This document shows, in pieces, positions 20,281 through 46,097 of a DNA stretch of 64,000 bases. The DNA lies in NCBI RefSeq assembly GCF_030684315.1, contig NC_081360.1, forward strand, positions 11,140,599 through 11,204,598, written 5' to 3'. The notes beneath the pieces were generated by a model. The model did no database searches, had not been told where the DNA came from, and saw only the letters and a list, made by a program, of their open reading frames with translations. The DNA comes from Stegostoma tigrinum. Taxonomy: Eukaryota. Each line of letters starts with the position of its first letter. Within the stretch, counting starts at the first letter, position 1. The translations under genes were made by a program, and so were the position numbers.

Positions 20281-20308
20281 GACGTTTCAGGCCGAGACCC
20301 TTCATCAG
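20281..20308 (-). ncRNA. Minimal type I hammerhead ribozyme core in the 3' pLTR
   Basis: Minus strand CTGATGA-A-GGGT-CTCG-GCCT-GAAA-C-GTC: both conserved core boxes, helix II, palindromic ACGT in place of helix III and a GUC cleavage triplet. Confidence 0.7.
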
Positions 20309-23715: not shown

Positions 23716-23809
23716 CCCTGGAAGAGGCTTCGCAGGGAGGTTAAAATTGTGATCAGAGATAATGGGAACTGCGGATACTTATTTCCAAACCCTCTCCCCA
23801 TCTCCCTCT

Positions 23810-23837
23810 CTGATGAAGGGTCTAGGCCCGAAACGTC
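23810..23837 (+). ncRNA. Minimal type I hammerhead ribozyme core in the inverted pLTR
   Basis: CTGATGA-A-GGGT-CTAG-GCCC-GAAA-C-GTC; predicted cleavage 3' of 23837. Confidence 0.78.
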
Positions 23838-24212
23838 AGCTTTTGTGCTCCCGAGATACTGCTTGGCCTGCTGCGTTCATCCAGCTCCACACTTTGTTAT
23901 CTTGGATTCTCCAGCATCTGCAGTTCCCATTATCTCTTCGCATAATCTCTCTACTTTTCAATTCTATGCCTACAGAAATCAGCACAGGTGTTTTGTTTCA
24001 TTCTAATTAGCCTTATTAACCGTGAGTGCTACTTTAAAGTTTTGTATCTCTGCACCTTCATTTAGAATCTTATTTCCCAAACAAGATGCATCACCTCACA
24101 TTTTGATGTTAATTTCCCAATTACACAGCCATATTCCATCCCCTATTCCCAATTCCTCCGCCTCTGCCGCATCTGCTCCCACGATAAGACATTCCACTCC
24201 CGCACATCCCAG

Positions 24213-25082: not shown

Positions 25083-25306
25083 CCGGTTCTTCCTCTCACC
25101 CATCCCTTCCTCCCACCCCAAGCCGCACCCCCAGCTACCTACTAACCTCATCCCACCTCCTTGACCTGTCCGTCTTCCCTGGACTGACCTATCCCCTCCC
25201 TACCTCCCCACCTATACTCTCTCCACCTATCTTCTTTACTCTCCATCTTCGGTCCGCCTCCCCCTCTCTCCCTATTTATTCCAGTTCCCTCTCCCCATCC
25301 CCCTCT

Positions 25307-25334
25307 CTGATGAAGGGTCTAGGCCCGAAACGTC
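25307..25334 (+). ncRNA. Minimal type I hammerhead ribozyme core in the pLTR
   Basis: Identical to 23810-23837: CTGATGAAGGGTCTAGGCCCGAAACGTC. Confidence 0.78.
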
Positions 25335-25674
25335 AGCTTTTGTGCTCCTGAGATGCTGCTTGGCCTGCTGTGTTCATCCAGCCTCACATTTTATTATCTC
25401 CAAATTTGTAATGTGTTTTATTGTTTTATTGTAGTTTTCCTTTGAATTTATTGTACTGTCCAATTTTTTGACATGGCATATTTTGAAGCATACTTCCACA
25501 TCCCAAGTTCAAATCTTCTGTGTAAATTTTGTACAACTATGTTCTCAACACTGATTCCTGTGAAACACCACTTCTACATTCCATCAATTTGAATAAATAC
25601 ACTTGACTTCTACTCTCTGATTTCTGTTTTGTAACCATCTTTCTGTTTTTTCTTCTACTTATCCTTGAATCCAT

Positions 25675-26100: not shown

Positions 26101-26119
26101 AGAATTATTGTAAATTCTG

Positions 26120-26228
26120 AGATAGTAAGAACTGCTGCATTTTGGAAGTAGGGTCCCGACCCAAAACGTTAGCTTTCCTGCTCCTCTGATACTGCCTAGC
26201 CTGCTGTGTTCCTCCAGCTCCACACTTG
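26120..26228 (+). mobile_element. 109-bp ORF-less PLE pLTR mini-element
   Basis: Inverted tail stub (gagatagtaagaactgctg) plus pLTR with a degenerate hammerhead (gggtcccgacccaaaacgtt). Perfect 15-bp flanking repeat ttattgtaaattctg at 26105-26119 and 26229-26243. Confidence 0.82.
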
Positions 26229-27589
26229 TTATTGTAAATTCTGGTTGTCTTCCCAGAATTGAAATATTCACACTTAAGGCATGGAAAGATCTTTATTTAA
26301 ATCTTACATGCCACTCTACTTGGCAGGAGAATGGTTAGGCTGGTATCATGTTACATTCTTCAGTGCAACCTTGTAAATGTGTCCCAACTAGAACACCTAG
26401 CTCACATGCAATTAGTTCCAGCTCTATACACACACTACAAAATTATGTACATTGACATAGTAAAAGTGCGGATATGGAGTTGAACTTATAACTTTCTGAC
26501 TCAGAATACTGTTGCTGAACCATAACTTACATATCTTCATTAATCTACAGGATTGTTTGTGCAGTTCCTGACTCGGGAACGTAGTCTCTTCAGTCAGCTC
26601 CCAATTTTTAGTTCACAAATCTTCCCAATTGTCAGTTCTTTCTGTGTGCTGGCTGTTCCTGCAGTTGAAGATATATTCTGTTCAGTTGCTTTCACTTTGT
26701 TTCTTTTCCTTGCCTTCAGCTCCTGTAGAAATAACAAAGCAGAGAATTACACAGTATTTATTGATTTATTTTCCTTTCAATTATTTCACACTACAAATGT
26801 CAGAAAGCCACAAAATTTTTAGTCTGTTTCAACATCAACATTAATTGTGCAGAAATCAACAGTACAGGCTCTCTCAAGCCTCCTTGCCCTGCCACTCCAC
26901 AGAATGAGATTCTTGTATCTCTGTAACATCTCCCTCAACAGAAAAATGTCTGCTGTTCGTTATTCTGTAACTTGGTGTTCACACGAATTATGTGCTATTC
27001 TTCCTGCATGAGAACAGGAAGCTTGTTATTTTCTAGCAGAGAGAAATTGATTTGACAACTATTAGAGATTGCTCACCATTTTCTTTTATGTGACATCCAT
27101 GGAGAGGATAAGGCTTCAAAGAGCATTTTGTATTATAGAATTTTACAGCTAAATATTTGACTTCCTCCATGTGAAGGACTCTCAACACCCTGGAAACTTT
27201 GCTTCACAGAGCTGTGCACTTTTGTGTATGGCTTCTCTTTTAAGTTAATATCAGTCTGCCTTCTGCAAAGTGCATAGAACAGAAAAGTATCAGCCTGCTA
27301 CAGACAAACTTGCTTTTGCTCATCGCATGAGATCATTAAACTTATTTCAGTACTGAATGTGGTTCCTGTACATGATGGTTGCTAGTCACTTCTTCTGCTA
27401 TTGTTCTGACTTCTGCCAAGTGTCTTGCCTTTCATCCTGTGCCTGACTTGAATTATGATTTTCTGAAAGATTTGCTGATCACCTTTACTTTATTCCTATT
27501 GGAACCTTTTCTTAAGCATGCTGACGACTGATTCTACTTTGAGTCATTAAGGTTTAAAGTGTTCATTCGGATTCTTGGAAGTACTCCTT

Positions 27590-27800
27590 TCAGAGTCAGC
27601 TCTAACTCAATTGTAGCACTTTAACTCTAAGTCAGAAGGTTGAGGACATGAGCCCCTTACCATAACCTGAAGCATAATATTTTAGCTAACAATCTGCAGT
27701 ACTGAGGGAATGCTGCATTGTCAAAAGTGTCTCTTTTGGATGGGACTTCAAACATAGGTCTTGTCTGCCCTCATGAAAGATCTCATGATGGAAGCCAGTC
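27590..27800 (+). mobile_element. DeuSINE-like SINE 5' fragment
   Basis: tRNA-like head (gtagcactttaactctaagtcagaaggttg) and gcagtactgagggaatgctgcattgtc, as in 43420 and 56390. Confidence 0.55.
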
Positions 27801-27994
27801 TCAAAGTCTTGTAGGCACCCCCTAGCAGTTCTCGGTAGTACGTCTTTTTAGGTGATGCTGTCTGTCCAAGTCATGCACAGGATCTTATGCAGGCAGCACT
27901 GGTGACAGACATTCTACCTATTTCACATGTTGCTGTTCTTTTCTATGTCTCTGTAGCATAGTCTGCAGTTGGTAGTACTATAGACATGCAGAAT

Positions 27995-28400
27995 CAAAGA
28001 TTCAGGGCTGTGTTGATGCTGTTGGTTTCCCACACTGTGTAAAGTTCCTGGACAAGTATCACTGTTTTGCCAATTCTTGTATGAACATTGAGACATGTTG
28101 AGAAAGTAGTTACTAAAGCATAGTCTATAAACTTTATTAATGGGGAAAGTACAAGGGCAAGGAGCTTATGCCAATGAGACAGTACTTTAAGCTCAGTTGG
28201 ACGATTGCACTCAGTCCTGCTGACAAAACTTGGAAACGATGTGAAGGCATTGAAGAGACAATTGAAAGAATTCAAGATAATGGTTCCTGGGTGAAGAACT
28301 TTAGATAACAGCGTTGATTGTTGATGCTGGGACTGTATTCCTTGGAGAAGAGAAGGCTGAGAAGAGCTTTAATTGAAGTATACAACATCCTGAGAGGTCT
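27995..28400 (+). mobile_element. Old CR1 fragment
   Basis: LGLYSLEKRRLRRALIEVYNILRGL and a DVKALKR motif. Confidence 0.65.
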
Positions 28401-28846
28401 GCCCCCTCATATCCCTCATATTATTCATGATCCTTTGCCCCATGCAAGTAAAACATGTACTCTCCAAAACCACCCAGACAGTACCTGCTGTGGTCAAACA
28501 TCAGGAGCCCTGTGCTTAACACGCAATTGAAAAAAAAGTCTCTCTATCAATCTAATAAAGTGGTACCTCAAACACACAACTAATTCTCCTGAGAAATAAA
28601 ACTCCAGAATCATTGAAAAGACTCAACCCCTCAAGTGGCCAATTGGTTGTAATATTGAACAGTAACCACATCAATCCGTTATGGACAATCCATTACTAAC
28701 TTCTTAAATCAGTTAATCAAACTATGAAAACAACCCCTTTTTGAGACAAATGGTTTCCTAGCTTTTGAAACTTGGCAAAGCATTCATAATGGGTTCAACT
28801 GTCAAAGGAAAAAGAGCCTATTTGAAGTGAACTGATAGCTGGCTTA

Positions 28847-29067
28847 AAACAGAAAAAAAGTTGCTGGAAAAGCTCAGCAGGTCTGGCAGCATCTGTGGAG
28901 GAGAAAACAGAGTTAACGTTTCGGGTCTAGTGACCATTCCTCAGGACACCAGACCCGAAACATTAACTTTGTTTTCTCCTCCACAGATGCTGCCAGACCT
29001 GCTGAACTTTTCCAGCAATTTTGTTTTTGTTCATGATTTACAGCATCCACAGTTCTTTTGGTTTTTA
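28847..29067. mobile_element. Fold-back PLE pLTR mini-element (second pLTR family)
   Basis: Inverted arms 28861-28928 / 28951-29018 (~68 bp, few mismatches). Hammerhead-like CTGAGGA-A-TGGTC-ACTA-GACCC-GAAA-CGTT on - at 28915-28944. TSD gatagctggctta (28834-28846) / gacagctggctta (29068-29080). Confidence 0.88.
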
Positions 29068-29749
29068 GACAGCTGGCTTAGTTTTTCCAACATACACCAG
29101 ATTGCTTTGACTGGCAGGTGATCAGAAAAATTGTACCTTGTTTTGTTGTGAAAGCTGTGGTTTGATTTGTTTGCAAGTTTTAATAACTTTAGATCATAAC
29201 ACAGAAGTCCCCAAGCTCTACTTTATTCTATTTGAATGCGAAGCACTTTTGCAAATGGTAAAAGTACTCTTATGCACCTCAACACTTACTTACACAGTGC
29301 TGGTCAATATAATGATCAACTTACCTCAAGTGACTTTTCAGCAGCCTTCCAAATTTTGCCCAACCTGATGAAAATATGGGAGGACAGAAAAAAGTTATTA
29401 AATTTTCCCTAGGCTTGTTAATAGCGATCATGACAACGCAGGATGTGCTTGTTGGGTCATGACTTCATTCAAGCCTCTTCATGGAAATTTTATTTGGACG
29501 CATTTTACATGGGAAATCTAAATTTTCAGTGAAGGGAACAACATTTTGTGACTCCAGGAGAACACAAAAATCCAACCAAGAGGATAAGTATTCACATGCG
29601 TGCTGAATATGTCTAGTTGTTTCTCATTGTATTTCTGTCAATGTATCACACACTGTCAGATTGTCTAACATTACTATAGATAAGTCACAATTTCCTCCAA
29701 GTAAACATCTGTAAAATTGACTCCATTGAATCCTTTGCTATGATTCTGC

Positions 29750-30050
29750 TACTTCACTGGGGTCTCCTTCCTTGCCATTGACCCAGGTTGAAGCAGATTG
29801 TATTGAACTAGAGTGACTTGTTTCAGTCTGAGGTGAAGTTCCATCTGCACATTCTTTCCATTCTCGCACTGCTTCCTTATACTGTTGCAATGTAGTCTAT
29901 CTCTACCTCCACCTCAGCTCACCACTGTGGAATTACTTGTTCAAACTTTTCCTTACTTAATTCCACTTTTCCTTTGTGCTTCTATCTAGCCTGCCCTCCC
30001 ACAACCTCGGCAAATTCAAACTCATCTAATGTTCAGCCATGTGTACCATG
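29750..30050 (+). mobile_element. L2-like LINE fragment, highly decayed
   Basis: ctccacctcagctccaccactg...aaattcaaactcatctaatgttcagcc resembles the L2 post-RT region also seen at 49880-50210. Confidence 0.35.
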
Positions 30051-30270
30051 ACATGAAAGTGGGAAGCAGACAAAAGGAACAGACCAATAATTATTTGAAG
30101 AAAATAATAAGAGCAGAATAAAGTGATGGTATTATACATCATGCCTGATACGTATTCCGATGCAAATATTCTCCTTTAATTCATTGAGGTGTAAAAGATG
30201 GCATAGAGTTGAAGAATAAAATTATTCCCAAAATAAAAACGGATAATGCTGAAATACTCAGCTGGACAGG

Positions 30271-30615
30271 CAATGGCCCAGTGGTATTATTGCTAGATAA
30301 TTAATCCAGAAACTCAGCATTATCCGAGGGCCTGGATTCAAATCCTGTCATGGCAGATGGTGAAATTTGAATTCAATAAAAGTCTGGAATTAAGAGTCTA
30401 GTAATGATCATGAATCTGTTGTTGATTGTTGGAAAAACCTATCTGGTTCAGTAATGACCTATAGGGAAGCAAATCTGCCGTCCCTGCATGGTCTGGGCTT
30501 CTTGTGACTCAGACCTGCAATGACATAATTGACTCTTAACTGCACTCTGGGCAATTAGGGATGGGCAGTAAATGCTACCTGAGCCAGAGTCACCAACATA
30601 CTGTGAATGATTTTT
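30271..30615 (+). mobile_element. tRNA-derived SINE, MetaSINE-like
   Basis: A/B-box-like head (ggcccagtggtatt...ggattcaaatcc) and central gggaagcaaatctgccgtccctgcatggtctgg..gtgactcagacc..ttgactcttaactgcactct. Homologous to 41385-41825. Confidence 0.7.
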
Positions 30616-30878
30616 TTTTGAAACGATTGCCGACTGAAATATTAACTGAATGTACTACCACTTCTTGAATGTGCCATTGATCTTTAACCACAGGAGGTTC
30701 CTGCATGTCTGCACCTGTTATGCTAGCAATTGCTAAAACTCATTTATTTTATGTGAATCAGGGCTGCAGAGACTAACCTCACCTGTAAGGAAGATACTAG
30801 AAGAAAAGAAGGTGATGCTTATGCCAATGCATCGACTGTAGAGGTGCCCAGTGAAGGAACATTAAGCCCCACTTTCAT

Positions 30879-31345
30879 GGGGCGGCGCGGTGGCTCAGTG
30901 GTTAGCACTGCTGCTTCACAGCACCAGGGCTGTAGGTATGATTCCACCCTCAGGCGACTGTCTGTGTGGAGTTTGCACATTCTCCCTGTGTCTGCATGGG
31001 TTTCCTCCGGGTGCTCCGGTTTACTGCCAAAGTCCAAAAATGTGCAGGCTAGGTAGATTGGCCATGCTAAATTGTTAAATGAATCTGATCACCTGCCAGT
31101 CAAAGCAATCTGGTGTAGGTTGGAAAAACCAAGCCAGCTATCTGTCCACTTCAAATAGACTCTTTTTCTTTTGATAGCTGAATCCATTATGAATGTTTTG
31201 CTGAGTTTCAAATTTCAGGGATGTGTAGATTAGATAGGTTATAGTGAGATGGGTCTGGGTAGGATGCTGCAAGGATCGGTGTGGACTTGTTGGGTCGAAG
31301 GACCTGTTTCCACACTGTAGGGATTTCTACGATGTTCTATGATGA
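30879..31345 (+). mobile_element. HE1/V-SINE-like SINE carrying a 129-bp foreign insert (31084-31212)
   Basis: tRNA head ggcggcgcggtggctcagtggttagcactgctgc, V domain tgtgtggagtttgcacattctccctgtgtctgcatgggtttcctccgggtgctccggttt, CR1-type tail. Confidence 0.9.
31084..31212 (-). repeat. Inverted local copy of 28764-28846 joined to 29081-29126
   Basis: The reverse complement aligns without gaps to both flanks of the 28847-29067 element and has one copy of the TSD. Confidence 0.92.
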
Positions 31346-32457
31346 TGTAAGCAGGATAATTTCAGCAGCCCAATGGACTGCTTAGGTACTGCAAGTGGTG
31401 ATCAACACCATGCACAATTCAGGATTTCCCAATTAATTGTCACATACTCCGTAACTTGGTTCAGAGAAGGGGTCTGACACTGGACCTGGAAAAATTCAAG
31501 GAAGGGAGCCTTTCCTATTCTGTGGAGCAGTAGGGGAAGAAATGTAGGAAGTCATTGTGGCCAGAAGCGTGCTCACTCAACACTGTTTTACATGTTGGTG
31601 ATGTTGCAAGAGTGTGAAGCAAGACTTGAAAGGGAGAGGAGGGAATTGCAGGCAACAAGAGTAGGACATGAGAATATCACACATTCAACCACATCACCCT
31701 TAAGAAATGGAATCTGGATGCTGCATAAAGGTAACAGGTGAGAAATTATGACATTTCACCCCATATAGACTGCAAAATTCTGTAAATATATCATAAATAG
31801 TTAAAATATTTTAAAATAAATATTTTTGTTTCGATGTATGCATGTCTTGTATATTGGCAATGTACCTGGGAAGACTATACTATAGCAATTGGCCTCATTA
31901 TAGGAGCTGTTGGATCCTACTTTGTGACTGTGCTACATGCATTTCAGCAGGGGTATTGCCCTCATTTGGATCATCCAACAGTTGATTCAACAAGCTGAGG
32001 GGCCAAAGAGTTAACAAAGGTGAGATTCCCTCAAAGTGCAGCAACCTCTCACCAATTGTTTAGATTGACCAGAATATAATGTGTTGTCCCAAGAGCTGCA
32101 GATGTTGATTTACTCTGTTGATTGGAAGGCTGTTGGGTGCTTCAAAATAATGGCAACAGCATAGCTGTTCTCATTCCAGCTGAGATAGAATTGTGGTCAT
32201 CTTCATTCTTCATGTGAAGTAGTGTCCGTCAAACTTGGACATTTAAACATTAGTCCCTCTCTTTCATTAGGGGGATACCTATGACCCATGATGGACTGTG
32301 ACAAATTACTTACCTACTCAATGATTGGACCTGGTGAATTCCAACGGTGCAGCTACCATCCCCTCTAGCTACTGATATGGTACCCAAATGTGTTCTTATT
32401 CAGGGTACTTAGCACTTGTCACATTACTGAGCTGAAGCCAGTGCCACTGGGAGATCA

Positions 32458-32570
32458 CAGAATCCCTCCAGGTAGAGGTCATTTCAGGCCATCGAGTCTG
32501 CATCTACCTTCTGAAGAGCATACCTGGCACTGTGAGGCAGCAGTGCTAACCACTGTGCCACCATGCCGCC
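32458..32570 (-). mobile_element. Internally deleted V-SINE (head joined to tail)
   Basis: cctggcactgtgaggcagcagtgctaaccactgtgccaccatgccgcc (head, reverse complement) adjacent to acagaatccctccagg..catttcaggccatcgagtctgca (tail). Confidence 0.7.
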
Positions 32571-33269
32571 TTTTTCCTGTGCAGGAGTTTAAACACTTCT
32601 CACTTGTGACCATGCATTCCATTATCGAACATGGAGATGAGACATGATCACCACAGATTCCTTCATGCATGATGCATAAACTCACAATGCCTTGGAGAAG
32701 TCAGATATATGGTGACTTACCTGCTGTTTTGGTTTCAAATAATCAGTCCCAAAGGGAAACTCCTCAGACTCTATCTAACCTCCTAGAAGGCACCCCTCCA
32801 GTTATCATCTATCCCTCAGGAGTAATGATGTACAGAAGCCTCTACTTTTAATAACTCATTCTTCACACTGGTGCTGTGTTTGTCAATCAAAACTCTCCAC
32901 TCCATAACCTCATTCATACCACCACACTGTTTCCTTTTGTGACTACAACTTCAGAAAATGGTTACAGTGCATCCTTAGACACGTGTCTGCTTCTTAAATC
33001 CAAGGTCTGACTCTTATCAGGGGACAGCTAAGGGGCCTATGAGAGAAACGTAGCCCAGTCATGAGAGGAAGTCTGCATTACTGTTCCAAACCTTTCTTGT
33101 TACTCATCCTAGTGTTCCATGTAACCTCCATAGTTAAATACAGATTTAACTTAGAATTACACAATATTATTACTGCCCAAGATGTCATTTACAACTCTCC
33201 CGTGGTCCTGTTAGAACTGCGGCTCCTTTGTAGTGCAGTCAATGCTATGACTACCTATTACTGAGAACG

Positions 33270-33412
33270 GGTCTCCCTATCATATTCATGTTTCTTGAAC
33301 AGCATGCAGATGATCACAAGGCATTTTCCTTCACAAGTTTGACTTCTGGTAGATTTGGACCCTCATCTCTGGTCTTACACAATACACAGGCACTGTGGGT
33401 CCTCTTCTCCTA
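33270..33412 (-). mobile_element. Probable Harbinger Myb/SANT-like gene exon remnant
   Basis: Acceptor ctttccctcctatccttttag followed by EKRTHSACVLCKTRDEGPNL, resembling the EK.AHN.RER..TGGG.P exon of Harbinger Myb-like proteins. Confidence 0.4.
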
Positions 33413-33519
33413 AAAGGATAGGAGGGAAAGATGAGGTGATTGCTGATCAAACTACGTAGTTAAATATTGCTCTTGGAGACATTCAATTTAGGTTAATTGA
33501 AATTGTCCTTTACCATTTA

Positions 33520-33880
33520 CGGGTGGCACAATGGCGTGATGGTTAGCATTGCTGCCTCACAGCGCCAGCAACCTGCATTCAGTTCCAGACTTGGGTGACC
33601 ATGTGGAGATTGCACATGCTCCTCCTATCCGTGTGGGTTTACTCTAGGTGCTCACAGTCCAAAGATTTGCAGGTTAGAAGAATTGGTCATACTAAATTGC
33701 CCCATTTTGAACAAGAATGTGCAGGCTAGGTGGATTAGTCATGGTGAAGGTAGGGTTGCACGGATAGGGTCGCACAGATAGGTTCAGGGGCTGGGTCTGG
33801 GTGAGGTGCTGTTCGGATGGTCAGTGCAGATTTGTTGGGCTGAATGTCCTCTATCTGGACTGTAGGGAATCTGTGATTCT
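33520..33880 (+). mobile_element. HE1/V-SINE-like SINE, older copy
   Basis: gggtggcacaatggcgtgatggttagcattgctgcctcacagcgccag head, V domain, tail ctgtagggaatctgtgatt. Confidence 0.85.
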
Positions 33881-33949
33881 CGGTAAACTTCAGAATAAGT
33901 CACATGGTCTGTGTTTAACCCTAAATTAAAGACAATTGCAAAATGTAAC

Positions 33950-34890
33950 AATTTCACAAACATCCTCACCTGTAACAAGGAGAAGCAGAACCAGCAGCAG
34001 CAGCTTTCTCTTCACCAAACTGCTGTTCAGAAGACTGAGGGGCTTAGCACAGAGTTCCAGCTCACAGAATGTGTTATTCCCACAAAAGGGTTTACAGGGA
34101 ATTGATAAGCTTTCTGAACATGACTGAGCAACAATGCCTCAAGGAAAATGATCTTCTGCAAAGTGATCAGTGGACATTCACTACCAGTAGCTGTTGAAGT
34201 CACCACAGTTCAAAATGTATTTGTTTCTGGCTCCTTGCAGAGATCAGCAAATAACCTGTAGAATCTTACAACCTGTTGCTCAGAGGGGTCTTCAGTGCAC
34301 TTCTCAACTACTGAGACAGGTCAGAAAGAGGAAATGCTGCTTTGCTACTCAGGCTCATTTCCCACAAGTCCTGGGAGTCATCAACTGCACACATGGTCCT
34401 CCCACAGTTCTCATGAACTGAAAGGGCTTCCACTACATCAATGTACAGCTTGTAAGCAACCGCAAGAAGATCATCTTGCATGTCCATGCAAGATTTCGAG
34501 AGAGCTATCATAATGTTTACATCCTGCACTGGTTAAGTCTCTCTGAGATAGTCACATCTCCAAGCAGTTAGCTGGTGACTCTTCATGACAACGCTGACAT
34601 CACCTGTCGGGAGCTCAAACAACCTTGTCCAAGAAAAATACAGTAGATGCTACCTGACAATTAAAGCAGTGATATGCAAGTAGTCAGGATTCTGAAGATA
34701 CACTTTAGATGCCTCAGTGGTCCCAGGGATTCTTTTGACAATGCACCAGCCAGGATAATCAGAATGATGGTAATCTGCTCCATTTTGCAAGCAGCAAGAA
34801 ATAAAACTAAGTGGATGAAGCTATTCGATCGTTTGAAAGGAAGGAGGCGAAAGAAGAGCTCATTAGGAGGAAGAGGAGGGGTATGATGTG
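33950..34890 (+). pseudogene. Decayed PIF/Harbinger (HARBI1-like DDE) transposase
   Basis: Ordered motifs across frames: KRVYRELISFLNMTEQQCL; GHSLPVAVEVT..FVSGSLQ; HFPQVLGVINCTH (pattern FP.V.GAIDCTH); N*KGFHYINVQLV; HARFRESYHNVYIL (ARFPGS.HD.YIL); ILKIHFRCL; MMVICSILQ (VVVCC.LHN). Confidence 0.8.
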
Positions 34891-35304
34891 GCAAGATAAT
34901 AAACAGCGACACAATTTGCAGTCCAGGATATCTGGAATAGTCTAACTTAGACATGATTCATTTTGTCCTAGGCAGTGTAGACATCTGGCACAGATGTCTT
35001 TGTTCTTCAATACCACTATCATAAAGCAGTTGCATAATCTAAAAATCATTGCTTTTACTGACAACCGGTGTTTCTTTTCATCTTTTGTCTTATCTTCCAA
35101 CATAAGGTAGAACGTCACTTCTCAACCTGCAAGTAAAATTGAAAATGTAGCAAACTAAATTTTATTTTGCACAAAGAAGGGCAATAACTTAATATGATGA
35201 TAAGGATCCATTGTCAACAAAAATTCCTTAATCTCTTTCTAAATGTTTTTCTGTGCCACTACTCAGTGTCTTCAGTAGGAGTTGAGGCAGGCTTCTCAAA
35301 GGAA

Positions 35305-35690
35305 AATTGTTAAAATCTATAATGAGAGCACTGATAGCAAGCAGCATCAATGTGGTTTTGTGAATGGAAAATTATGTTTCACTAATTTATTAGAGCTTTT
35401 TTGAGGAAGTAACAAGTAAGGTGGGTAGTGGGGAAACCTGTAACTATGATTTCCTTAATTTCCAAAAGGCTTTTAAGGATGAATTACATCAAAAGTTACT
35501 ACATAAAGTCAAAGCTAATGATTTAGGGGATAACATTATACCATGAATAAAAATCTGCATTATTAATAGGAAACAGAGGGTAGGGGTAAATTGATTTTGT
35601 TTTTGGGTTGGCACACTGTGACAACTGGGGTGCTGTAGGGATCAGTGCTGGAATTTCAACTGTTTAAAATCTGTTTCAATGGCTTGAACT
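35305..35690 (+). mobile_element. Old CR1 RT fragment
   Basis: QCGFVNGKLCFTNLLE.FEEVT..., NRKQRVG, TGVL*GSVL. Confidence 0.75.
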
Positions 35691-35751
35691 AAGGTTCCCA
35701 ATCCACTGTTGGCATCCGCAGTGGTGAACAGATTTGAACGTTAGAATTCAG

Positions 35752-36603
35752 TGTAATGTCTCAGATCAATAATGTTTAATCAGAACTGCTAAGTATCCCA
35801 GAACTACTCAAAGTCCCCAATTAACCAGTCTGATAGACTCAAGTTAACAGAAAATACTGACAAGCACCACCATTCATTAAAAATAAGTTAATTTTACCCA
35901 TGGTTAAGCAACTATGAACTATCAACATATAGCTTAACTAATTGAAGCTCTAGCCTGCTTTTCAAACCCCACACAGACAGACACAAACAAACAAATCAAC
36001 AAGCTTTATGGGGCGGAGGGAGGATAAATGGAGAAACATTGTCCATAAGCTTTGATGATCATTTTTCTTTCTCTGTTCTTCAAATGTCTTCCTTCCAAGT
36101 TCTTCTTGAAAACACAGGGGATTTTCACATTAATTGTTCCATTTCACAGCTATTAGTTACAGCAAAGAGTGGGAAAAAATAACTGGCTTTGTCTTCAGGC
36201 TTATGTAACTTGGCCACAAAGCTAGAGACAAATTCTGCTTCCTCCAGTGTGGAAACCTACCTCAGTGTCATTCACACATACAAGCTGTTCAGGTGTACAG
36301 GAGCCTGTCAGAGAGCTATCAACAGGCTTATGACCTGTACAATAGGCCACAATTGTACAAATCAGCAATCTGTTGCTAGCCAAATTTCAGTCTACATACA
36401 TACACACCTCAGTGCCATGCCATCTTATCTCACCTCCCTCCTGTTAACAAAGCAGCAGTATAAACAGAACTCAAAAGAGTTCCAGTAATTTGTTTTTAAA
36501 AGCGTAGTAATTCCTTTCCCAGTCGTTGATTTCAAAAGAGTCCATTTCCTATTTTAGAACAGGATCATAGATACAGAAAAATAAAAAAGATACCGTCTTT
36601 ACA
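35752..36603. mobile_element. Possible solo LTR
   Basis: Bounded by TGTAATGTC...GTCTTTACA (imperfect short inverted termini, TG..CA). No TSD visible. Confidence 0.3.
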
Positions 36604-37390
36604 AAGTCATTTAACTTTCTTTGCTGGATGGACAGGATTGAGGATGTGTCATTGAAATTGTTTGGAAAGTAATGAAGAGACAACTATTTACTATAGCTTC
36701 ACAAGGCAAAAAGAGCATTGTTAAGCAAGATTTGGTAATTGATTCAACATACTAAATGCACTTTGAGGATGGAGCAAAGATACTGTCTCTGTAAACAATA
36801 AGTTGTTTTTTATTTCTCCATTGAGCTTTCATTCCCTGTGTGCGTAGCTGCTATTCGACGAGGGACAGATATCACACTTCTGACTGTGAGTTAATTATGT
36901 TCTTTCAAACTCTGAAAGGCCTATAATTCATGACTGCTACAGATACAAGTGAGTTATAGCAGTATTGTGTATGAGTGAAAGAACAGCTGGAACTTTGATT
37001 ACCAGTGAGATAATTGGTTAATTATTTCAGAATGAACAGTCCTTGAAAGCATAGCGCAGCTTTAACAGAGAGGCTTCTCATTAGCACAGTGCTAAAAATT
37101 AAACAAAAGATTAAAACTGTCTTTTGTCTGGTTCTGTTTGTATCTAAATGATATGACATCAGCAAATACGTTCATAAGAGGAGGTCTTAAGCCAGGCATT
37201 AGGAAGAAGATGCATTATCATGCACCATTCAAATGACAAGCCTGTTAAATCGCCCAGCATCAATAACTAATTACAATTGTTAATTGTATTTCTTCACACA
37301 ATCTTGCGCTGTGAAACCTCTCAGGGACTTCCAGTGATTCCAGAATCATTTGGGCTTTCTCTAAAATCAGAGAGTAGGAGAGAGCTCTTC

Positions 37391-37530
37391 AACAGTTAGT
37401 TACCCCAACTAATTCCCTTAGTTCCCAGTATTTTGATCTTGGAACAGTTGGTACAAGGTGGATTCCTCCAGTGAAAACCTAATCATACCTGTGCTGTGAG
37501 AATGTGTATAGTCAATTGGTTGGTCTTGTT
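37391..37530 (+). repeat. First copy of a diverged ~135-bp direct repeat (second copy 39325-39459)
   Basis: Shared blocks ttcccagta.tttgatcttggaacag, caaggtggat.cctcca.tgaaa.cctaatcat.cctgt.ct.tgagaatgt. Confidence 0.85.
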
Positions 37531-39324
37531 TCTCCACTGGGAGTCAATAGCAAATGCTTTCTGTCAGTCTTATTGCATATTCTTCCTGTGGGGTCACTGG
37601 TAGGCATCGATCTGCTTCGAGATTTCAGTGGCTGGTGTGGTTGATATCCTCACGTGAAGTTGGTGTTTTACTTCTGTATTCTCCTCAGGGTAATTGCTGA
37701 TTTTGCAGATACCAGAGTAAATGGAATATCTGAGAATGTACTTCTATCTAAGGGCTATCTCAGATTTAAATAATTTATTCAGGACATAACCTCTATGGTG
37801 ATCACTGGCCTCTGCTCACTTAGTCAGTAGTCGATGCTAACTTCTGTGTCACTGAGAAGCTAAGTGTTAAACAGCGGAAAGTCTTTGGAGGAAGTGTTTG
37901 GTAACATTGTAACCTCAAAGTACAGTGGTGCTAAAATTCTTCAGGCTGCAATATTGGCACTTGTATCAAGATTTCATATTGGATGACCATAGTGCAATCA
38001 ATTGCCAAAGTCTGTGACATAACAGATAAACACCTCATTTACATAGGCAGATGGGAACAAACACAACCTAAGATTTTCTTCTGGCACCCACATGTCCCCC
38101 ATGACTAGAAAATTGCCAAACCATTTGAAAAAAAGGATTTCCCTGCTTTAGTTGTACCACTGTTTAAGAGGCACCAAAGTAATTCGTCATTCCAATCTTA
38201 TATTGTCTTCCTTGTCCTACGCAAACCACTTTCCAAACAGAACTTGACATCCCCCAGTGGTTCCACCTTTTCTCAAAGTACTGCCTGCTTTTAATCCACC
38301 AAACATTGCCAGGATTGGTAACACCCTGAACCTCCATCCATCATTTACCTTTTAGTCAGTCCAGAAACTGGCAGAAATGGCAGAGGCTCAAAGTAATCCT
38401 GCTTTTCCACATGTTCATTAGTTTCTCAAGCCTTTTAGTGAAGTTACCGACAGGTCCTTCAGAAAAGTAGTCTCCATGTTTTCCATCTTCAGTCTCAAAC
38501 AAGTAAAGTCAGAAGAGTTAGGAGAAAGCTATAGGTATGTATTTTGTTTGATTATACTTGACCTACCCTTCAGTCTTCAAATTTATGTATTACGATTCAT
38601 AAATGAAGCCTGAATTACCAATAAAGGATAACACACCACAGTGAGGAATATTTGCTATAAGGCAAAACATGCAGTTTTTGAGAATAGCTGAGGAGAGGGC
38701 TTGTGAAAGGAAACTGGTTGAGTGCTTTCAGGCATCTACTAATCAGTCTCGTGACTGCCTGACAGTAAATGAAAAAGGATTTTTTTTTCCTATTTCCATA
38801 AGGTTACATATATCTTTTGATCAAGAAGCTAATGGCAGCTTTCAGGTCTAATTGTACCACGAAAACGTTGTGCCACTGTTGGTAGTATTGTGTAATGGTC
38901 CAAGTTTTGATGGCTGAAAAGCATCATGTTTAATGGCACGTATCAGTATTAGAAAGATCAAAGCATTAAACTGCATTTGTAACTGGGATTTTACAGAAAG
39001 ATGCTTGTTTCAGCAGTGTCAAAACACTCATAGTCAGTGAAAGATAACTTCATGCACTCCGTTTCATTGAACATTGCTCTCAAACAAGCCCTGTCAGCAT
39101 GGCTTAGGCAAGGATCCTGCACTGTTCCATCCTCATTTTCTTACTCGGCAAAATGTTGTGCTCTCACAGATTCCCCATCTGCATCCCAGCATCCTGCCTC
39201 CAATCACTACAAGTGAGATCCCCAGCTTCCCTCTTATAGCAAGTCCCTGATAACCCCACCTTGATTTTCACTGGACAGACCCCCAGGACTGACTGTGGCT
39301 CAATCTTATGACTGACATAAAAAG

Positions 39325-39459
39325 AACAGTTACCCAACCAATTCCATTATTTCCCAGTACTTTGATCTTGGAACAGATTTTGCAAGGTGGATGCCTCCAT
39401 TGAAAGCCTAATCATGCCTGTACTATGAGAATGTATACGATCCATCAGTTAGCCTTGTT
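39325..39459 (+). repeat. Second copy of the ~135-bp direct repeat
   Basis: See 37391-37530. It lies inside a low-complexity ctggactgac-rich tract (~39230-39700). Confidence 0.85.
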
Positions 39460-40169
39460 ACCAACAGCCAACAGCCTCATGTGATGAATTAAAAGACTCC
39501 TGACTGAGACCTGTGCAGCTCCCGACTGACTTACTGCAAATCCCCAAACTGGTTGAATTGCAGGACTGACTGTTGCCCACTCCCTGGATAGCAGAAGTAA
39601 GGACACCCTGATTCTGGATACCCGAGCAACTGACTAACCATGTCTAAGCCCCTGGACTGATACCAGACAATGCCTTTGATTTGCTGTGCCTGGATCCCTT
39701 AACTTTAGTAAGGACGACTCTGCTAAGGTTTTGAGACAAGGTCATTTGGGCAAAACACATTTGGTGCATTTGCTGCAGGCTGGCACATGGTATTGACATA
39801 GCTCAGAGTCATATAGCAACATGTCCGCCCCCTTGACAAATCACTGCTAACAGCTAAGACCAGCTGCCTAGGTTTGTATCGCTGCTGAAAATCAAAGCAA
39901 GATAGAAGTACTGTGAGTCTTTAAGTTCCAAATGAAGCAACAAAGTGCAAAAAGGAAGAAAAAAGACTGTGATGGTATGAACATCTAAGTAGGTGCAAAG
40001 TGAGTGAGCGCTAAGAGAAGTAAGTGAGGAGCCCTAAGATGCCCCCTGCTTTAAAGCACAAAATGGATACTTGTCCTTGCAAACAAAGCGTAATGCTGCT
40101 GGACAATGAAAGGCACCAATGCACAAAGTGCAGCATTGAAGTGGAGATCTCTATTTACCAGAAACACAA

Positions 40170-40960
40170 ATGTTGTGAGTGGGCAAAGATCTGGTCAATG
40201 GAGTATAATTTAGGAAGGTATGAAAATATCCATTGTGGCAGAAAGAATGAAAAACGTGTATTATCCAAATGGTGAGAAGTTGCAGAATTAAGATATGGAG
40301 AGATTTGGGTGTCTTAATGTAAGAATCACAAAGGCTTAGCATGCAGATAAACAAGTAAACAGCAAAATTAATAGGATGTTATGGTTTATTGTGAGAGGAT
40401 TGAATGCAAGAGTGGGGAGGTTATCCAACAATTACAGGACATCAGTGAGACTACATCTACAATGTGCAATACTGATCACCATGCTTGTGGAAGAATATTG
40501 ATACATTGGAAGCAGTTCAGAGAAAGTTTATGAGAATAATACCTGGAATAGCGGATTGCCTCATGAATAAGGCTGGAAAAGTCTGTGTTCTCTGGAATTC
40601 AGAAGAGTCAGAGGTGTTTTAATGAAACATAAGATCCTGAGGCAACTTGACTGGGTGCAAAGGATGTTTCCTCTTTTGGGAGAACCTAGAACTAAGGGTC
40701 AGTGTTTAAAAATAAGGCATCCCCTATGTAAGACAGAGATTAGGCAACATATTTTCTCTCAGAGAGGGTTGTGAGTCTTCTGAATTGCCTTCCACAAAAG
40801 ACAGTTGATGCGTAATCTTTTAAGTATTTTTAAGGCATAAGTAGATAGATTCTTGACTTCCAAGGGGACAAAAGATTATCAGAGATATGCAGGAATGTAT
40901 ATTTGCCATGATCTTATTCAATGGCAGAGCAGACTCCAAGAGCTGAATAGCCTCCTCTTG
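40170..40960 (+). mobile_element. Old 5'-truncated CR1 (3' part)
   Basis: EWAKIWSMEYNLGRYENIHCGRKN, LEAVQRKF, and the 3' UTR gccatgatcttattcaatggcagagcag..gctgaatagcctcct. Confidence 0.8.
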
Positions 40961-41384
40961 TTTGTATGAGTCAGTCAGAAATGTGCCATGATGACACCGA
41001 GAAGCTTGAATGTGTCTAATATCAATCTTTGGCTGGGGTGATGTGAGTGGTCACTGTCCATGGAGCACTGTTTGTGATGGCGGTGACTGCTGTGCAAGGT
41101 AGAGCACTGGAAGAGCAAGCAGCAAGATGAATCGGCAGACTGGGATTTATCACTGTTTAGTTTCTCTTCTGAACATGGAAGAAATGGAAAATGCATGCCA
41201 ACAAAGCGACATTAGGTGCTAATAGCATGCAGATAGGTCTCTCACTGCTCACGAGCAAGATTCTCATCTTGTCATTCAAAACTTAGTAAGAGAATCAGAC
41301 TTCTTTTTCTTGCTGTTGAAAGTCGCACATCAGCTAATTTGCACCATATTTTCCCAACTCATTTGCCAATGCCCATGTCATTCA

Positions 41385-41825
41385 TCACTATTATCATTAA
41401 ACTATTAATCCAGAAAATCAGCTAATGTTCTGGGGACACAGGTTCAAATCCCACCACGGCAGATGGTGGAGTTAGAATTTAATTTTAAAAATCTGAATTA
41501 AGAATCAAATGATGACTATAAAACCATTGTTGGTTGTTGGAGAAGCCAATCCAATCTGGCTCATTCATGTCCACTAGGGAAGGAAATCTGCCATTCGTAC
41601 CTGGTCTGGTCAAATGTGACTCCAAACCAACAGCAATGTGGTTGACTCAACTGCCCTCTGAAAAGGCCTAGCAAGCCACTTAGTTGTATCAGCTGCTCAA
41701 CCTACAGCATGTGGACTGCCGTAATTCAAGAAGGCAGCTCACCACCTTCTTAAGAGCAACTAGGTATGGGCAACAAATGCTGGTCAGCCAGTGACATTTT
41801 TGGGCACGATTGAATAAAAAAGAAA
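41385..41825 (+). mobile_element. tRNA-derived SINE, MetaSINE-like
   Basis: B box ggttcaaatccc; central agggaaggaaatctgccattcgtacctggtctggtcaaatgtgactccaaaccaacagcaatgtggttgactc; tail aagaaggcagctcaccaccttct...tgaataaaaa. Confidence 0.75.
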
Positions 41826-42624
41826 CTTGATTTTGTCATAATTCATCCTATTTCCTTCTCTATATTTCTGCCGTTTGTTTCTCAATTCTTATATGTCAAT
41901 ACTTTAAAAAACTGTTGGCAATGTTTTTCATCCAAATATCAGATGTCCCACTGCACTGCATCAGCTCCCACTTTTAGCAAGCTGCATGCTAAAAACAATC
42001 AACAGGGCATAACAAAAGATGCCCAGTTCCAGCAAATCTATCCCAGTGCCTTCCAGCCTGTGCAATGAATCAGAATTTGTTAGCCAGAATTTATATTCTG
42101 AGACTTTTTAATTGGTGCTTATAAATATAGTCTGTTCAAACAATAAACCATAATTCCAATTGTGCATGTGAAATTCTCTCAAGAATTTTCTCTTAGGACT
42201 TGTGATCTTGCTATACTCAGTGGTTACCAAATTACCCAGTTGCATTGATGGTTCCTGCTCCTTGTTAAATCCTTTCAAAAGACTTTAATTCCAAAATGTG
42301 ATTACTTTCCAAATCCTATTTGCATGTACAATTAATTCCAATTAATTAAAATGACATAACCTGACAGATTAAAAAGTCCACATGAATTTGGTGTTCTCTG
42401 TATTGATGAACCCAAGGAGGGAGGAACAAACCCACTCCCACTCTGAATTAACAGTCCTTATCACTTCATGTAAGCTAAGGAAAATTTGCAAGGAAGACCC
42501 AAGAAAAAAATCCTGTTCATTTTTGAGGACTTTATTTCAGAATTCTTAGCTTGAATCTTTTTTCTCTTACTGCCTTAAGACCGTATTCCCTCCTGGCATT
42601 TTGGCTATACTTCTTTTGACTCAA

Positions 42625-43390
42625 AGGTTAGGCCACAGCTGGAGTATTGCATGCAGTTCTCCCCACACCATAAAAAGGATGTGATTGCACTGGAAGGAGG
42701 ACATTCACCAGGATGTTGGAGTTAACAAGAACTACGGATGCTGGAGTCAGAGTCAATACAGTGTGGAGCAGGAGGAACACAGCAGGTCAGATAGCATGAG
42801 AGGAGCAGGAAAGTTGATGATTCAGGTCGATCAGTACCGTTTGACAAATGGTCCCGACCTGAATCATCAACTTTCCTGCTCCTCTGATGTTGCATGACCT
42901 GCTATCTTCCTCAGCTCCACACTGTATTGATTCACCAGGATATTGCCTGTAATGGAATACTTTAGCTATGGACAGAGGCCGGATTAGCTCAAGTTCTTTT
43001 CTTTGGAACAGAGAAAGCTGAGGACAGACTTGACAGAGGTGTATAAAATTATGAGGAGCATGGACAGGGTGGATAGAAAACAGCTGTTCCCGTTGGTTGA
43101 AGGGGCCAATAACAAGAGTGTGTAATTTTGAAGTGACAGCCAGAAGATTTAGAGGGGTTTTAAGGAATTTGTTTTCACCAAGAAGGTGCAGTGGATAATG
43201 GATAGCACTGCCTGGGAAGGTAGTTGAGGTAGATAATCTCATAATCTTTAAAAGGTATTTGATGGCCACTTGTAATATCATAACTTTCAAATGCTGTGGG
43301 CCTAGTGCTAAAGGCTGTGGCTCATGCAGATTTAGTGTAGCTTTGGCAGTATAGACTTGATGGGCCAAAATGCCTTTTCTATGATTCTAA
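42625..43390 (+). mobile_element. CR1 3' fragment interrupted by a fold-back PLE mini-element
   Basis: VRPQLEYCMQFS...KDVIALE..TFTRM / L..MEYFSY...FSLEQRKLRTDLTEVYKIMR; tail ttctatgattct. Confidence 0.85.
42719..42929. mobile_element. Fold-back PLE pLTR mini-element
   Basis: Inverted arms 42753-42829 / 42855-42930, tail on the left arm only. TSD attcaccaggatgttg (42703-42718) / attcaccaggatattg (42930-42945). Confidence 0.88.
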
Positions 43391-43419
43391 GAAGCATCAA
43401 TAAGCATTGGGTGTTGTAA

Positions 43420-43850
43420 GTCACAGTTCAGTCAGAGGCAGACTCTTGCCATTGATTCAGAAGGTTGTAACTGAAACCCCATTCCAGAAATCCAAGCTCA
43501 CAATCAAGGTTGACAGTCCAGTGTGCTGCTCTGTCAGAGATAGCCATCGTTTTGATGAGATGTTAAATACCATTCTATGGTAGATGTAAATGATCCCATG
43601 TCATTATTTTGAAAAGAGAGGCAGTCTTCCTGCTGCTTTTACAAATGCTACTCTCAACTAAAATAAGTAAAAGTACAGGTTATCAGTTCAGTATTACATT
43701 TCTGTTTGTGGAACCTTGCTAAGTGAAATTAACTGCTGCGTTTCCTACATCACATCATTGACTACTTGCCAAAAGAAAGAAAAAATTGGCTGTGAAGTGT
43801 TTTGGGATGGCCTTTGGTCATGCAAGTGCTATATTGTACAAATTTTCATC
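43420..43850 (+). mobile_element. DeuSINE (SacSINE1-like)
   Basis: tRNA-like head, Deu-domain-like gtagatgtaaatgatcccatgtcattattttgaa...cattctgtttgtggaaccttgct, tail ggctgtgaagtgttttgggatg. Confidence 0.65.
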
Positions 43851-44935
43851 TGGCATTCATTATTGAAATCTTTCTTCTGAGTACAAGCATTCTTCACCCC
43901 TTTGTTTAATTTAGTATAGAGAAAGCTGAAGAAATCTTCCAAATGCAATGACCAGAATTTTAGGTCCTCTGAGTAACCGAACTACCTCTGACATAATTTT
44001 GGTAGTGTTGATGTAGGTGTACGATAGTCCATATGCCCTTGCCCTTGGAGCAAGTGAAGCCTCTAAAGACGAATTAACAGCCACTTACTGTTAATTCCCA
44101 CCAGTGCTGGTATTTACCATTAGCTACCTCTCCACAGGGCAAGGTCATCAGGATTTTGGGGAAAGAATGCTCGTTCAGGAATCTACTTCCCAATAAAAGC
44201 CCAAACAGTCACAAGAACCACCCTTGCTTGTTCTTCACTACTCAGCCTCCTTTGCTGACTTTGTTCTTCCCTTCAATGAGAACAGTCATCTGCCCCACCC
44301 ACACTTGACCATCTGGCCTCCATTATTTTTCTGTTCATGGTGTCTGCAGTTGGGATTGAAGAGCCACAATCCATCTTATTGGTTGGCACCTCCTAGAGGC
44401 AATCCTACCATACCGGGTTCAAAGCCACAACTGCCTGGCAACTGTCAAATCCAGTTGTAGTTACACAAGCCAGCAAAAGTGGGTTCACGTGTGACTTTTC
44501 AGCCGTGAGCAAGGCTAATCTCTCCATGAAAAGTTCCAGCCACTCTGTTTGTATGGACAAGGAGAAAGACCGAGCAAACGTAAGCTACTCAAAGAGTTGG
44601 CATTATGTGTGGGCAATTTTTGGTCTGTTTACTGTCTCTGATTGCTTACAAATGTAAACATTTAAATGTATATCCCTCCCATTCTCTTGCAGCTGCTTTC
44701 ACAGGAGGTAGATGTTGCAAGCGACATGGGACAGAACTTTCCCCTCCTTGAGATGTTGAGAACATTAGTGAGTGTGATGAATCAATCAGGCCAGACTACA
44801 AAAATCATATTCTTGCCATTGAGTTAAACTATCACAAGTTTAGGTGGGGCAATCAAATTCTTGCCATCAGATGGTATGAATCCTGTGTTTATGAAATTGC
44901 ATCTGATTAATTACCCTACATGCTGAAATTAATTT

Positions 44936-45106
44936 TTACAAAGATAGTAGGAGCAGCCGATGCTGGAGAATCTCAGATAAGAAGGTGTAGTGTCCGACGA
45001 ACACAGCAGGCCAAGAAGCGAAGGTTCTAGACCCAAAACGTCAGCTTTCCTGCTTCTCTGATGCTGCTTGGCCTGCTGTGTTCATCCAGCTCTACACCTT
45101 GCTATC
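44936..45106. mobile_element. Fold-back PLE pLTR mini-element
   Basis: Left arm: tail plus agataagaaggtgtag...gaacacagcaggccaagaagc. Right arm: gctgcttggcctgctgtgttcatccagctctacaccttgctatc. TSD tgctgaaattaattt (44921-44935) / tgctgaaatgaattt (45107-45121). Confidence 0.85.
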
Positions 45107-46097
45107 TGCTGAAATGAATTTCCCATTTCTTATTTACCCCTGCTCAGTCAAGATACAGGACACTTCAATACTTCAACCACATAAATCACTGACAAGCCGT
45201 ACTTCCTCTGCCTCCAGTCTGAGTGAATATGCAGCTATTATGGCAACGTTCCTTTTGTTAATATTGGATGGAACTGCTACAGCTGCCATAGGCATTTTCA
45301 TGCTGAATAAGACACAATGTTTTCCTGGACCACTGTTCTGTCCAATTGGGCAACACAACAGCAACCCACCTGCATCAGATTCTAAAGTGGAACTTTAGCA
45401 CACACACTCTGCCAGCTTCAAGTGGCACAATTTTTGGGCAGCTTGAGTCAGTAGCTTTTTTCTCATGATTTGCACTTTAGCAAAGTGGGCAAAACAGGCA
45501 GCTTATTTCTACTGGAAACGGTGAAGAACAAAGGCGATGGGGAATACGGCAACATAGCACTGCATTACGTTGTGCCAACATCTGAGATGTACATGTAAAA
45601 GCAGTTTATGTTGGAAACATACTGCATGTGCATGGTGAGCATGGCAGAATGTGAAAACAAAAAGGGAGGCATGCTTAATGGGAAAAGGGTGTATTCGATC
45701 AATCAGGACATCAATGCGGTCAGTCCAGGAACCCACCCATTTTGAGCTAGATTGGGTGTGCCGAGGTGTGGTTTCAGTGCTGGGCATACTCAGGCATTTT
45801 GTCTTGACCATCACAGTTCAGGAACCAAACCACAATCAGTCCTGAGAGAGAATCAAAATCAGGTTGTGCTTAGCACTCGGTCAGTTGAGGTTATCTTGCA
45901 AATTCATTCTATCAGAAAGGTTAGCAGTGATCATTTGGGGCCATAATGTAAACACTATCCAGGCGATCGACCATGGTCACTCAGATGAGAATCATACATC
46001 ATCTGGATGTGTTTTAGGACAAATCTATAGTGTCACTAAGGCTGAGGACAACTTATACCTGAAGATTGGCCTGATTGTATTTGATAGTTTACATATA

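Follow-up and report, generated by a model that had tools for sequence, protein, structure and literature searches.

Insertions in which the pseudo-long terminal repeats (pLTRs) of Penelope-like elements (PLEs) lie in inverted orientation, carry a tail on one side and are flanked by a target-site duplication (TSD) have already been published (PMC3846280, PMC8557442, PMC8969392), and the origin of this inverted, one-tailed arrangement is called undefined (PMC8557442). In Pen2a_Av of the rotifer Adineta vaga, the pLTRs are inverted head-to-head, the 30-40-nt tail is often one-sided and a TSD is present (PMC3846280; scheme in PMC8557442, Fig. 2). For Poseidon of Anolis carolinensis, in vitro work describes two sites at which reverse transcription starts, one at either end of the tail, cutting and extension of both target strands, a predicted dimer, a T-rich (ATT) cut preference and hammerhead cleavage that is dispensable (PMC11167929). 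Here, we analyze a 64,000-nt stretch of the genome of the shark Stegostoma tigrinum (contig NC_081360.1, positions 11,140,599 to 11,204,598; hereafter, the window), in which four short inserts, A to D, each consist of two PLE pLTR ends joined head-to-head, with the tail, whole or in part, on one end only.

These inserts are an ordinary by-product of a known kind of element, not a new mobile class. They have a TSD of about 14 bp, one arm that ends at the inner end of the tail and one that ends at its outer end, a variable central junction and a sharp 5′ limit 1-9 nt before the hammerhead core. They are one-off, two-armed insertions of Neptune-type PLEs. In the likely mode of origin, a dimer would have cut both target strands, both ends of the staggered cut would have primed reverse transcription on the same stretch of RNA, the copies would have run off at the transcript start and their ends would then have been joined.

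Anatomy and abundance of the two-armed inserts

The four direct repeats flanking inserts A to D were found exactly where the initial annotation had placed them, with 15/15, 12/13, 15/16 and 14/15 identical positions, respectively, and arm alignments agree with its claim of a tail on one end only in each (Table 1). The tail itself, which had been given as ~30-45 nt or its last ~19 nt, is indeed present but measures 33-38 nt in the family references, and insert A retains its last 16 nt. Insert A is the extreme of arm inequality, with these 16 nt on one side and ~90 tail-less nt on the other. The direct repeat of insert B is a true duplication because the paralogous repeat at 31084-31212 contains the target once; the host of this insert is a short dispersed repeat (28764-29126), whose inverted paralogue 2 kb away is the empty one. 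Public contigs span the flank and centre junction of insert A (run X1, record 1), and the flank-element joints of inserts A and B are also found in public contigs (X1 and X3), where X1 may be the assembled sample itself. An assembly artefact was considered and ruled out by the TSDs, the empty site, the diverged arms and the public contigs.

Table 1. Coordinates of PLE-derived features in the window; arm positions are relative to the hammerhead core, as numbered in the text
Feature	Position	Strand	Basis
TATA-like box and initiator-like CCATTTT upstream of hammerhead core, older pLTR copy; predicted promoter	9786..9821	+	motif
Large element, long no-tail arm; broken reverse transcriptase + GIY-YIG open reading frame, 3′ pLTR; 5′ end inside upstream tail (+104)	20216..23779	-	RVT_1 E 1.1e-07 at 21529-22014
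Large element, short inverted tail-bearing arm; starts at -34, beyond the 5′ limit	23776..23935	+	reference alignment
5′-truncated PLE copy; GIY-YIG, CX4CXXC linker, TATA-like box 25273, hammerhead core 25307-25334, no tail, no TSD found	24133..25399	+	
Insert A, left TSD copy, 15 bp	26105..26119	+	15/15 match
Insert A, tail-bearing arm; only last 16 nt of tail, reference +109..+124	26120..26135	-	reference alignment
Insert A, no-tail arm, -5..E1; start = predicted transcript start, decayed hammerhead inside	26138..26228	+	reference alignment
Insert A, right TSD copy	26229..26243	+	15/15 match
Insert B, left TSD copy	28834..28846	+	12/13; target single at empty site
Insert B, no-tail arm, -3..+98; second PLE family, whole minimal hammerhead core 28944-28915	28847..28947	-	reference alignment
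Insert B, tail-bearing arm, +18..+133	28952..29067	+	reference alignment
Insert B, right TSD copy	29068..29080	+	12/13 match
Paralogous empty site of insert B, target once	31084..31212	-	
Insert C, left TSD copy	42703..42718	+	15/16 match
Insert C, tail-bearing arm, +17..+125	42719..42827	-	reference alignment
Insert C, no-tail arm, +2..+89; ~14 unaligned nt at centre	42842..42929	+	reference alignment
Insert C, right TSD copy	42930..42945	+	15/16 match
Insert D, left TSD copy	44921..44935	+	14/15 match
Insert D, tail-bearing arm, +49..+132	44936..45019	-	reference alignment
Insert D, no-tail arm, +6..+92; blunt centre junction	45020..45106	+	reference alignment
Insert D, right TSD copy	45107..45121	+	14/15 match

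Genome-wide counts come from a blind sample of 159 stretches of 10 kb, taken at round coordinates on large contigs (1.59 Mb of the 3.2-Gb genome), of which 119 served for discovery and 40 for replication, with predictions set down beforehand. Four reference subfamilies (1a-c and 2) were built from the sampled data. Positions were numbered from the C of CTGA in the hammerhead core (+1), which places the no-tail end (E1) at about +92 to +95 and the tail end (E2) at about +125 to +133. Head-to-head pairs numbered 119 against 3 tail-to-tail pairs, and 118 were analyzed, one at a stretch edge being left out. The resulting density of 74.8 fold-backs per Mb extrapolates to ~239,000 genome-wide (198,000-286,000, Poisson error only), and fold-backs make up 1.46% of the sampled bases. 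These stubs are 105-240 bp long and lack open reading frames (ORFs).

A clear TSD (score of at least 9) flanks 76/118 fold-backs, compared with 1/300 flank-swapped controls. Its median length is 14 bp; the expected peak at 13-16 bp is present (44/76), but the distribution is broad, ranging from 9 to 20 bp, without a narrow class. Exactly one end carries the tail in 74/76 TSD-verified stubs, and in 21/21 of the replication set alone, as the initial annotation had anticipated for most copies. When all 83 discovery pairs were classified by alignment ends, with or without a TSD, 71 had one tail, 4 had none, 2 had both and 6 were partial. The 3′ ends of the arms cluster at the tail borders, lying at most 3 nt from E1 in 40/57 and from E2 in 40/53. 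Within a family, the sequences at the two start sites terminate in similar motifs, TTATCT/CTATCT in family 1 and GTTTTT in family 2, and in both families eight consecutive tail nucleotides are complementary to eight others upstream in the pLTR, a possible RNA signal for the two start sites. A folding prediction for one pLTR-tail copy did not exceed those for shuffled sequences (z 0.98).

The one-tail rule extends to longer copies. A TSD flanked 19 of the 103 outward-facing arm pairs that lie far apart, and these 19 span 481-3930 bp; 17 of them carried one tail and 2 a partial one, with no tail/tail or tail-less pairs. Thus, the stubs are the short end of a single size series. At one sampled locus (L089, 4977-6186; similarly L122, 6750-8434), a two-armed PLE insertion with a 15-bp TSD has arms built of tandem ~301-nt units, each containing a pLTR, a tail, an ORF start and an internal deletion; this retrozyme-like non-autonomous derivative follows the same one-tail rule.

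The central junctions differ in 117/118 elements, so that the stubs are neither miniature inverted-repeat transposable elements (MITEs) nor a master-copy family. Among the 83 discovery junctions, 13 are blunt, 18 have a 1-4 nt overlap and 52 contain unaligned bases. A self-propagating non-autonomous family, whether a DNA-transposon MITE or a re-retrotransposed hairpin RNA, might be suspected from short, ORF-less, palindromic inserts of very high copy number. It would be expected to show a shared internal structure and equal termini with a fixed short TSD, the outcome that the initial annotation had named as refuting its reading; besides the distinct junctions, we found termini that differ in 74/76 and TSDs of 9-20 bp. 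Furthermore, a genome search that allowed up to 2 mismatches, with low power for old sister copies, recovered the centre junctions of A and C only once each; the best relatives of insert C are at most 82-83% identical; and none of the 118 elements carries a strand-biased A-to-G scar (lowest p 0.07). Such a family is refuted for the bulk of the stubs and is barely credible as a general explanation, although rare secondary copies are possible. Given the distinct junctions and the same tail rule in the 0.5-3.9 kb copies, the separate non-autonomous class put forward by the initial annotation is not supported.

The target is symmetric. T is enriched at +2, +3, +7 and +8 beyond each TSD end (50, 58, 63 and 55 of 106 ends; 47-59% against a background of 29%), alike on both sides and again in the replication set, as would be expected from a dimer making two equivalent nicks. 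Across all stubs, primer-RNA microhomology averages 1.33 and 1.64 nt, compared with 0.66 and 0.79 under a simulated null. The resemblance of the TSDs of inserts A and C to the tail was considered separately and dismissed, with no long homology and only the 1-3 nt excess left. No preference for other repeats was seen, with 25/150 flanks matching other loci against 101/300 random pieces, a control that includes PLE copies, in a comparison that took the other repeats together.

Relation of the arms and their 5′ limit

The no-tail arm extends further 5′ in 37/74 and the tail arm in 22/74, and in the discovery set the no-tail arm is longer by at least 15 nt in 12/53. Where the no-tail arm is the longer, as in insert A, neither arm can have been copied from the other, and this lack of nesting is evidence against self-priming (snap-back). 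In that scheme, proposed as the cause for rotifer Penelope (PMC3846280), a cDNA or antisense template would fold back and copy itself, and the endonuclease would trim the tail off one end. The second arm must then lie within the first, and only the tail arm can be first, contrary to the counts above; single-armed copies that end at either start site are likewise at odds with it. Self-priming could draw on the short palindromes or microhomology at some centres, such as the 1-4 nt overlaps in 18/83, and on the greater likeness of arms within one element than between elements, with an arm-to-arm divergence in the youngest family of 0.033 within and 0.078 between elements (n=21). This likeness, together with the membership of both arms in the same family in 111/118, points to one source for both arms and equally suits twin priming on one stretch of RNA. 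For half of the stubs or more, self-priming is largely refuted, and it is improbable overall. The non-nested arms instead point to two independently RNA-templated arms inside one TSD, as in twin-primed insertions. Together with the tail rule, the clustered 3′ ends and the symmetric target, they bear out the earlier inference of two primings on opposite strands of a ~14-nt stagger from two fixed RNA positions.

The initial annotation had further proposed possibly ribozyme-processed templates, for which breakpoints clustered at the ribozyme would speak. Only 8/97 nearby 5′ ends lie within 1 nt of the hammerhead cut, against 9.4 expected, and 162/236 arms run at least 6 nt past it; because there is no peak at the cut and most arms cross it, such processing is not supported. 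In the window, the fold-back centre does lie at the hammerhead core for one arm per insert (start at -5 to +6), but not for both, and the cleavage site itself (+28/+30) is passed by at least 22 nt by at least one arm of every insert. Retrozyme-like templates, i.e. short RNAs freed by hammerhead self-cleavage, would agree with the minimal hammerhead core in every pLTR and with the tandem ~301-nt units at L089; the 5′ ends speak against them, as do hammerhead mutants that, according to the cited in vitro account, insert normally (PMC11167929). As the main route, this is refuted and very improbable, and a sample of this size would accommodate a minor share at most.

The 5′ ends meet a wall just before the core. 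Among arms that reach -1 (paired arms plus unpaired arms of at least 45 nt), 112/266 stop at -1 to -5 and then 22/154 at -6 to -10; beyond the wall, stops amount to only 15/132 over the next 45 nt. Each of the four subfamilies shows the wall, and in each the similarity to the upstream reference has dropped to background level by -5 or -6. Long copies have CCATTT or TCAGTT at -4, which we take to be initiator-like, and a TATA-like box lies at -34/-35 in families 1a-c or at -33 in 3/7 long family-2 copies, i.e. 29-31 nt ahead of -4. When both arms reach -1, they stop or pass together: 10 pairs are wall/wall, 16 beyond/beyond and 2 mixed (13.4 expected, p 4e-6), and this holds when family 1a (p 1.4e-5) or family 2 (p 0.001) is taken separately. 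The wall is therefore a property of the insertion rather than of the arm. A pause built into the sequence would act on each arm alone, and the joint stopping thus speaks against such a pause.

Several points weigh against run-off at a transcript start and, more generally, against a strict twin-priming scheme. The transcript start is placed by motif prediction, and the wall, 5-9 nt wide, also falls on the 5′ border of hammerhead helix I, the same border at which a spliceosomal intron is described to end in Drosophila virilis (PMC4209133), a species whose promoter is described as TATA-less (PMC2377424). No extra cap-derived G was seen, G standing at -5 in 15-23% of short arms. With 152/236 stub arms (about two thirds) ending short of the wall, an added trimming step is needed, and if each event lasted only a limited time for both arms alike, this might also make their stops correlate. 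In the discovery set, no-tail and tail arms were about equally often the longer one (21 vs 18), a balance that the replication set did not show (16 vs 4), and the microhomology excess was weak in replication (p 0.02 and 0.14). No TSD reached the score threshold in 42/118 pairs. Conversely, 19/107 short unpaired arms have a TSD (null 5/300), with a second arm hidden in only 2/19, so that two arms are common, not obligatory. The arms share family, variant and wall behaviour, and two like RNAs would give the same result as one RNA. Finally, in the Poseidon study, no difference in start site between the strands was found in vitro, which leaves the strict one-tail rule unexplained, and no RNA-target homology is reported there (PMC11167929).

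The same twin priming might operate with a wall of another nature, namely a processed RNA end (splice-site-like, or an exonuclease stop at helix I) or a strong reverse transcriptase pause in short events. The position of the wall at helix I, the D. virilis intron, the width of several nt without a cap G, and a CAG at -5 to -3 after a pyrimidine run in family 2 would all suit this alternative. It does not sit well with junction fillers that lack a shared upstream exon, with the 29-31 nt TATA-like spacing kept in two divergent families, or with long insertions whose arms both cross the site (16 beyond/beyond against 2 mixed), and we consider it unlikely, although far from negligible. Run-off at the predicted transcript start remains our preferred reading of the wall.

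Parent element and other copies in the window

The large element of the window shows the asymmetry claimed for it by the initial annotation; its TSD (20202-20215/23936-23949) is 14 bp long as claimed, but only 12/14 positions are identical. Its endonuclease region is 86% identical to the 5′-truncated PLE copy at 24133-25399, the source of the GIY-YIG profile match (24066-25079; E 2.9e-04, 21.5 bits, just below the cut-off of 22.6), and a full-length homologue (P0002) passes the cut-offs of both RVT_1 and GIY-YIG. The parent element thus has a reverse transcriptase followed by a C-terminal GIY-YIG domain, together with a pLTR, an inverted 5′-truncated copy, a 30-40-nt tail and a TSD, as in endonuclease-positive PLEs, and the PLE origin of the inserts proposed by the initial annotation holds. 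The closest named homologue is from Chiloscyllium punctatum (63% over part of the query). A low-complexity Thr/Ala/Pro-rich repeat is inserted in the N-terminal part of the ORF (22850-23140, minus strand).

Translation reveals C-X4-C-X2-C ahead of GIY-YIG and C, C, H, H inside it. Neptune and Nematis are defined by CX2-5CxxC in the linker between reverse transcriptase and endonuclease and by CCHH in the endonuclease (PMC8557442), and because the linker fits this definition, the parent and the inserts are assigned to the Neptune/Nematis type; we call them Neptune-type by this motif, which is common to both. A pattern search identified the minimal hammerhead core, CTGANGA-stem II-GAAAC-GTC/GTT, with predicted cleavage, in every pLTR, in agreement with the description in PMC4209133. 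An Rfam search returned no hammerhead family, only weak microRNA hairpin matches that fell short of the gathering score.

Other PLE copies or fragments with a single arm lie at 1240-1357 (-), 9448-9943 (+), 24133-25399 (+), 47020-47111 (+) and 62981-63287, and no TSD was found around the three single-armed window copies examined. The window also contains long interspersed nuclear element (LINE) copies with RVT_1 at 47364-49258 (-) and 58162-59981 (+), presumably CR1-like, and fragments at 1728-2894, 10681-12174, 53632-53939 and 60373-63999. A short dispersed repeat family (25683-25743, 30881-31333, 32523-33702 and 46098-46399) may resemble the 3′ ends of shark short interspersed nuclear elements and LINEs.

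Proposed insertion route and comparison with known systems

In the proposed route, a dimer of the reverse transcriptase-GIY-YIG protein would nick both strands ~14 nt apart at a symmetric T-rich site (nick, then NTTNNNTT), leaving 3′ overhangs. Of the two 3′ ends, one would prime at the inner and one at the outer site, and a match of 1-3 nt might assist them. A transcript driven by the pLTR promoter would contain two pLTR-tail units, one at either end. If priming took place at the 3′ unit, the products would be long copies that include an inverted pLTR. If it took place at the 5′ unit, both cDNAs would run off the RNA start after up to ~95 and ~130 nt, in a strong-stop-like manner, and yield stubs of 105-240 bp. 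The two cDNA ends would then be trimmed and end-joined, bluntly, through microhomology or with short fillers, and the RNAs serving as templates would have an uncut hammerhead. The TATA-like box is absent from the stubs, which are probably dead ends. The short arm of the large window element starts at -34, beyond the wall, and was therefore read from a 3′ pLTR copy, which fits priming at the 3′ unit as judged from the alignment.

More tentatively, and at somewhat less than even chances, endonuclease-positive PLEs may in general integrate two-handed, with one dimer of reverse transcriptase-endonuclease, a symmetric ~14-nt stagger, a single RNA copied twice and one subunit registered to each tail end. 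If so, the inverted pLTR and one-sided tail seen throughout this class of PLEs would follow from two-handed integration, and, with a start signal 95-130 nt from the cap, ordinary mRNA would give rise to strong-stop-like hairpin inserts, ~200,000 of them and ~1.5% of the genome. The stubs provide a large natural record that favours twin priming over self-priming. Their value lies in quantitative evidence on the PLE mechanism, namely the near-absolute one-tail rule, the non-nested arms, the symmetric 14-nt stagger and the joint 5′ wall; they also give a candidate transcript start and yield predictions for the in vitro Poseidon system. For annotation, hundreds of thousands of hairpins that resemble MITEs or microRNA precursors would be by-products of retro-insertion. 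Our literature search found no paper on ORF-less two-armed PLE stubs or on PLE twin priming, although older papers, Dfam or Repbase may describe the shape.

Compared with Pen2a_Av, whose pLTR contains TATA and Inr-like motifs as does the shark pLTR (PMC3846280), the stubs are only 105-240 bp long and ORF-less, their TSD is ~14 bp rather than the 8-10 bp given for the rotifer, they follow the one-tail rule almost without exception, and the non-nested arms argue against the self-priming proposed there. Poseidon and the stubs are alike in start sites that bound the tail, in the use of both strands and in a T-rich target; Poseidon belongs to another clade, whereas the element described here has the CX2-5CxxC linker of Neptune/Nematis (PMC11167929). 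Hammerheads close together on opposite strands have been noted in Schistosoma (PMC4209133). Non-LTR (long terminal repeat) retrozymes (bioRxiv 10.64898/2026.07.22.740005) share with the stubs their nature as ORF-less pLTR derivatives with type I hammerheads in vertebrates, including one chondrichthyan; as described, they form head-to-tail tandem arrays, whereas the arms of the stubs meet head-to-head, the ends of the stubs do not coincide with the cleavage site, and no master unit underlies them. Inserts A to D contain no head-to-tail hammerhead units, and the stubs' 5′ ends do not peak where cleavage would set RNA ends; the tandem arrays at L089 and L122 are closer to retrozymes than the stubs are.

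MITEs of DNA transposons are likewise short, non-coding, palindromic, abundant and flanked by TSDs. The stubs differ from them in having no common internal junction, unequal termini, a long and variable TSD and a size series that continues up to ORF-bearing copies. When LINE-1 inserts by twin priming, both cut ends prime on the element RNA, and the outcome is an inverted insertion that lies within a TSD and has had its centre repaired. There, the site at which the second primer anneals is internal and varies, and for the most part the two cDNAs represent different parts of the RNA. Here, in contrast, both primings would occur at fixed sites 33-38 nt apart, and the same part of the RNA would be copied twice.

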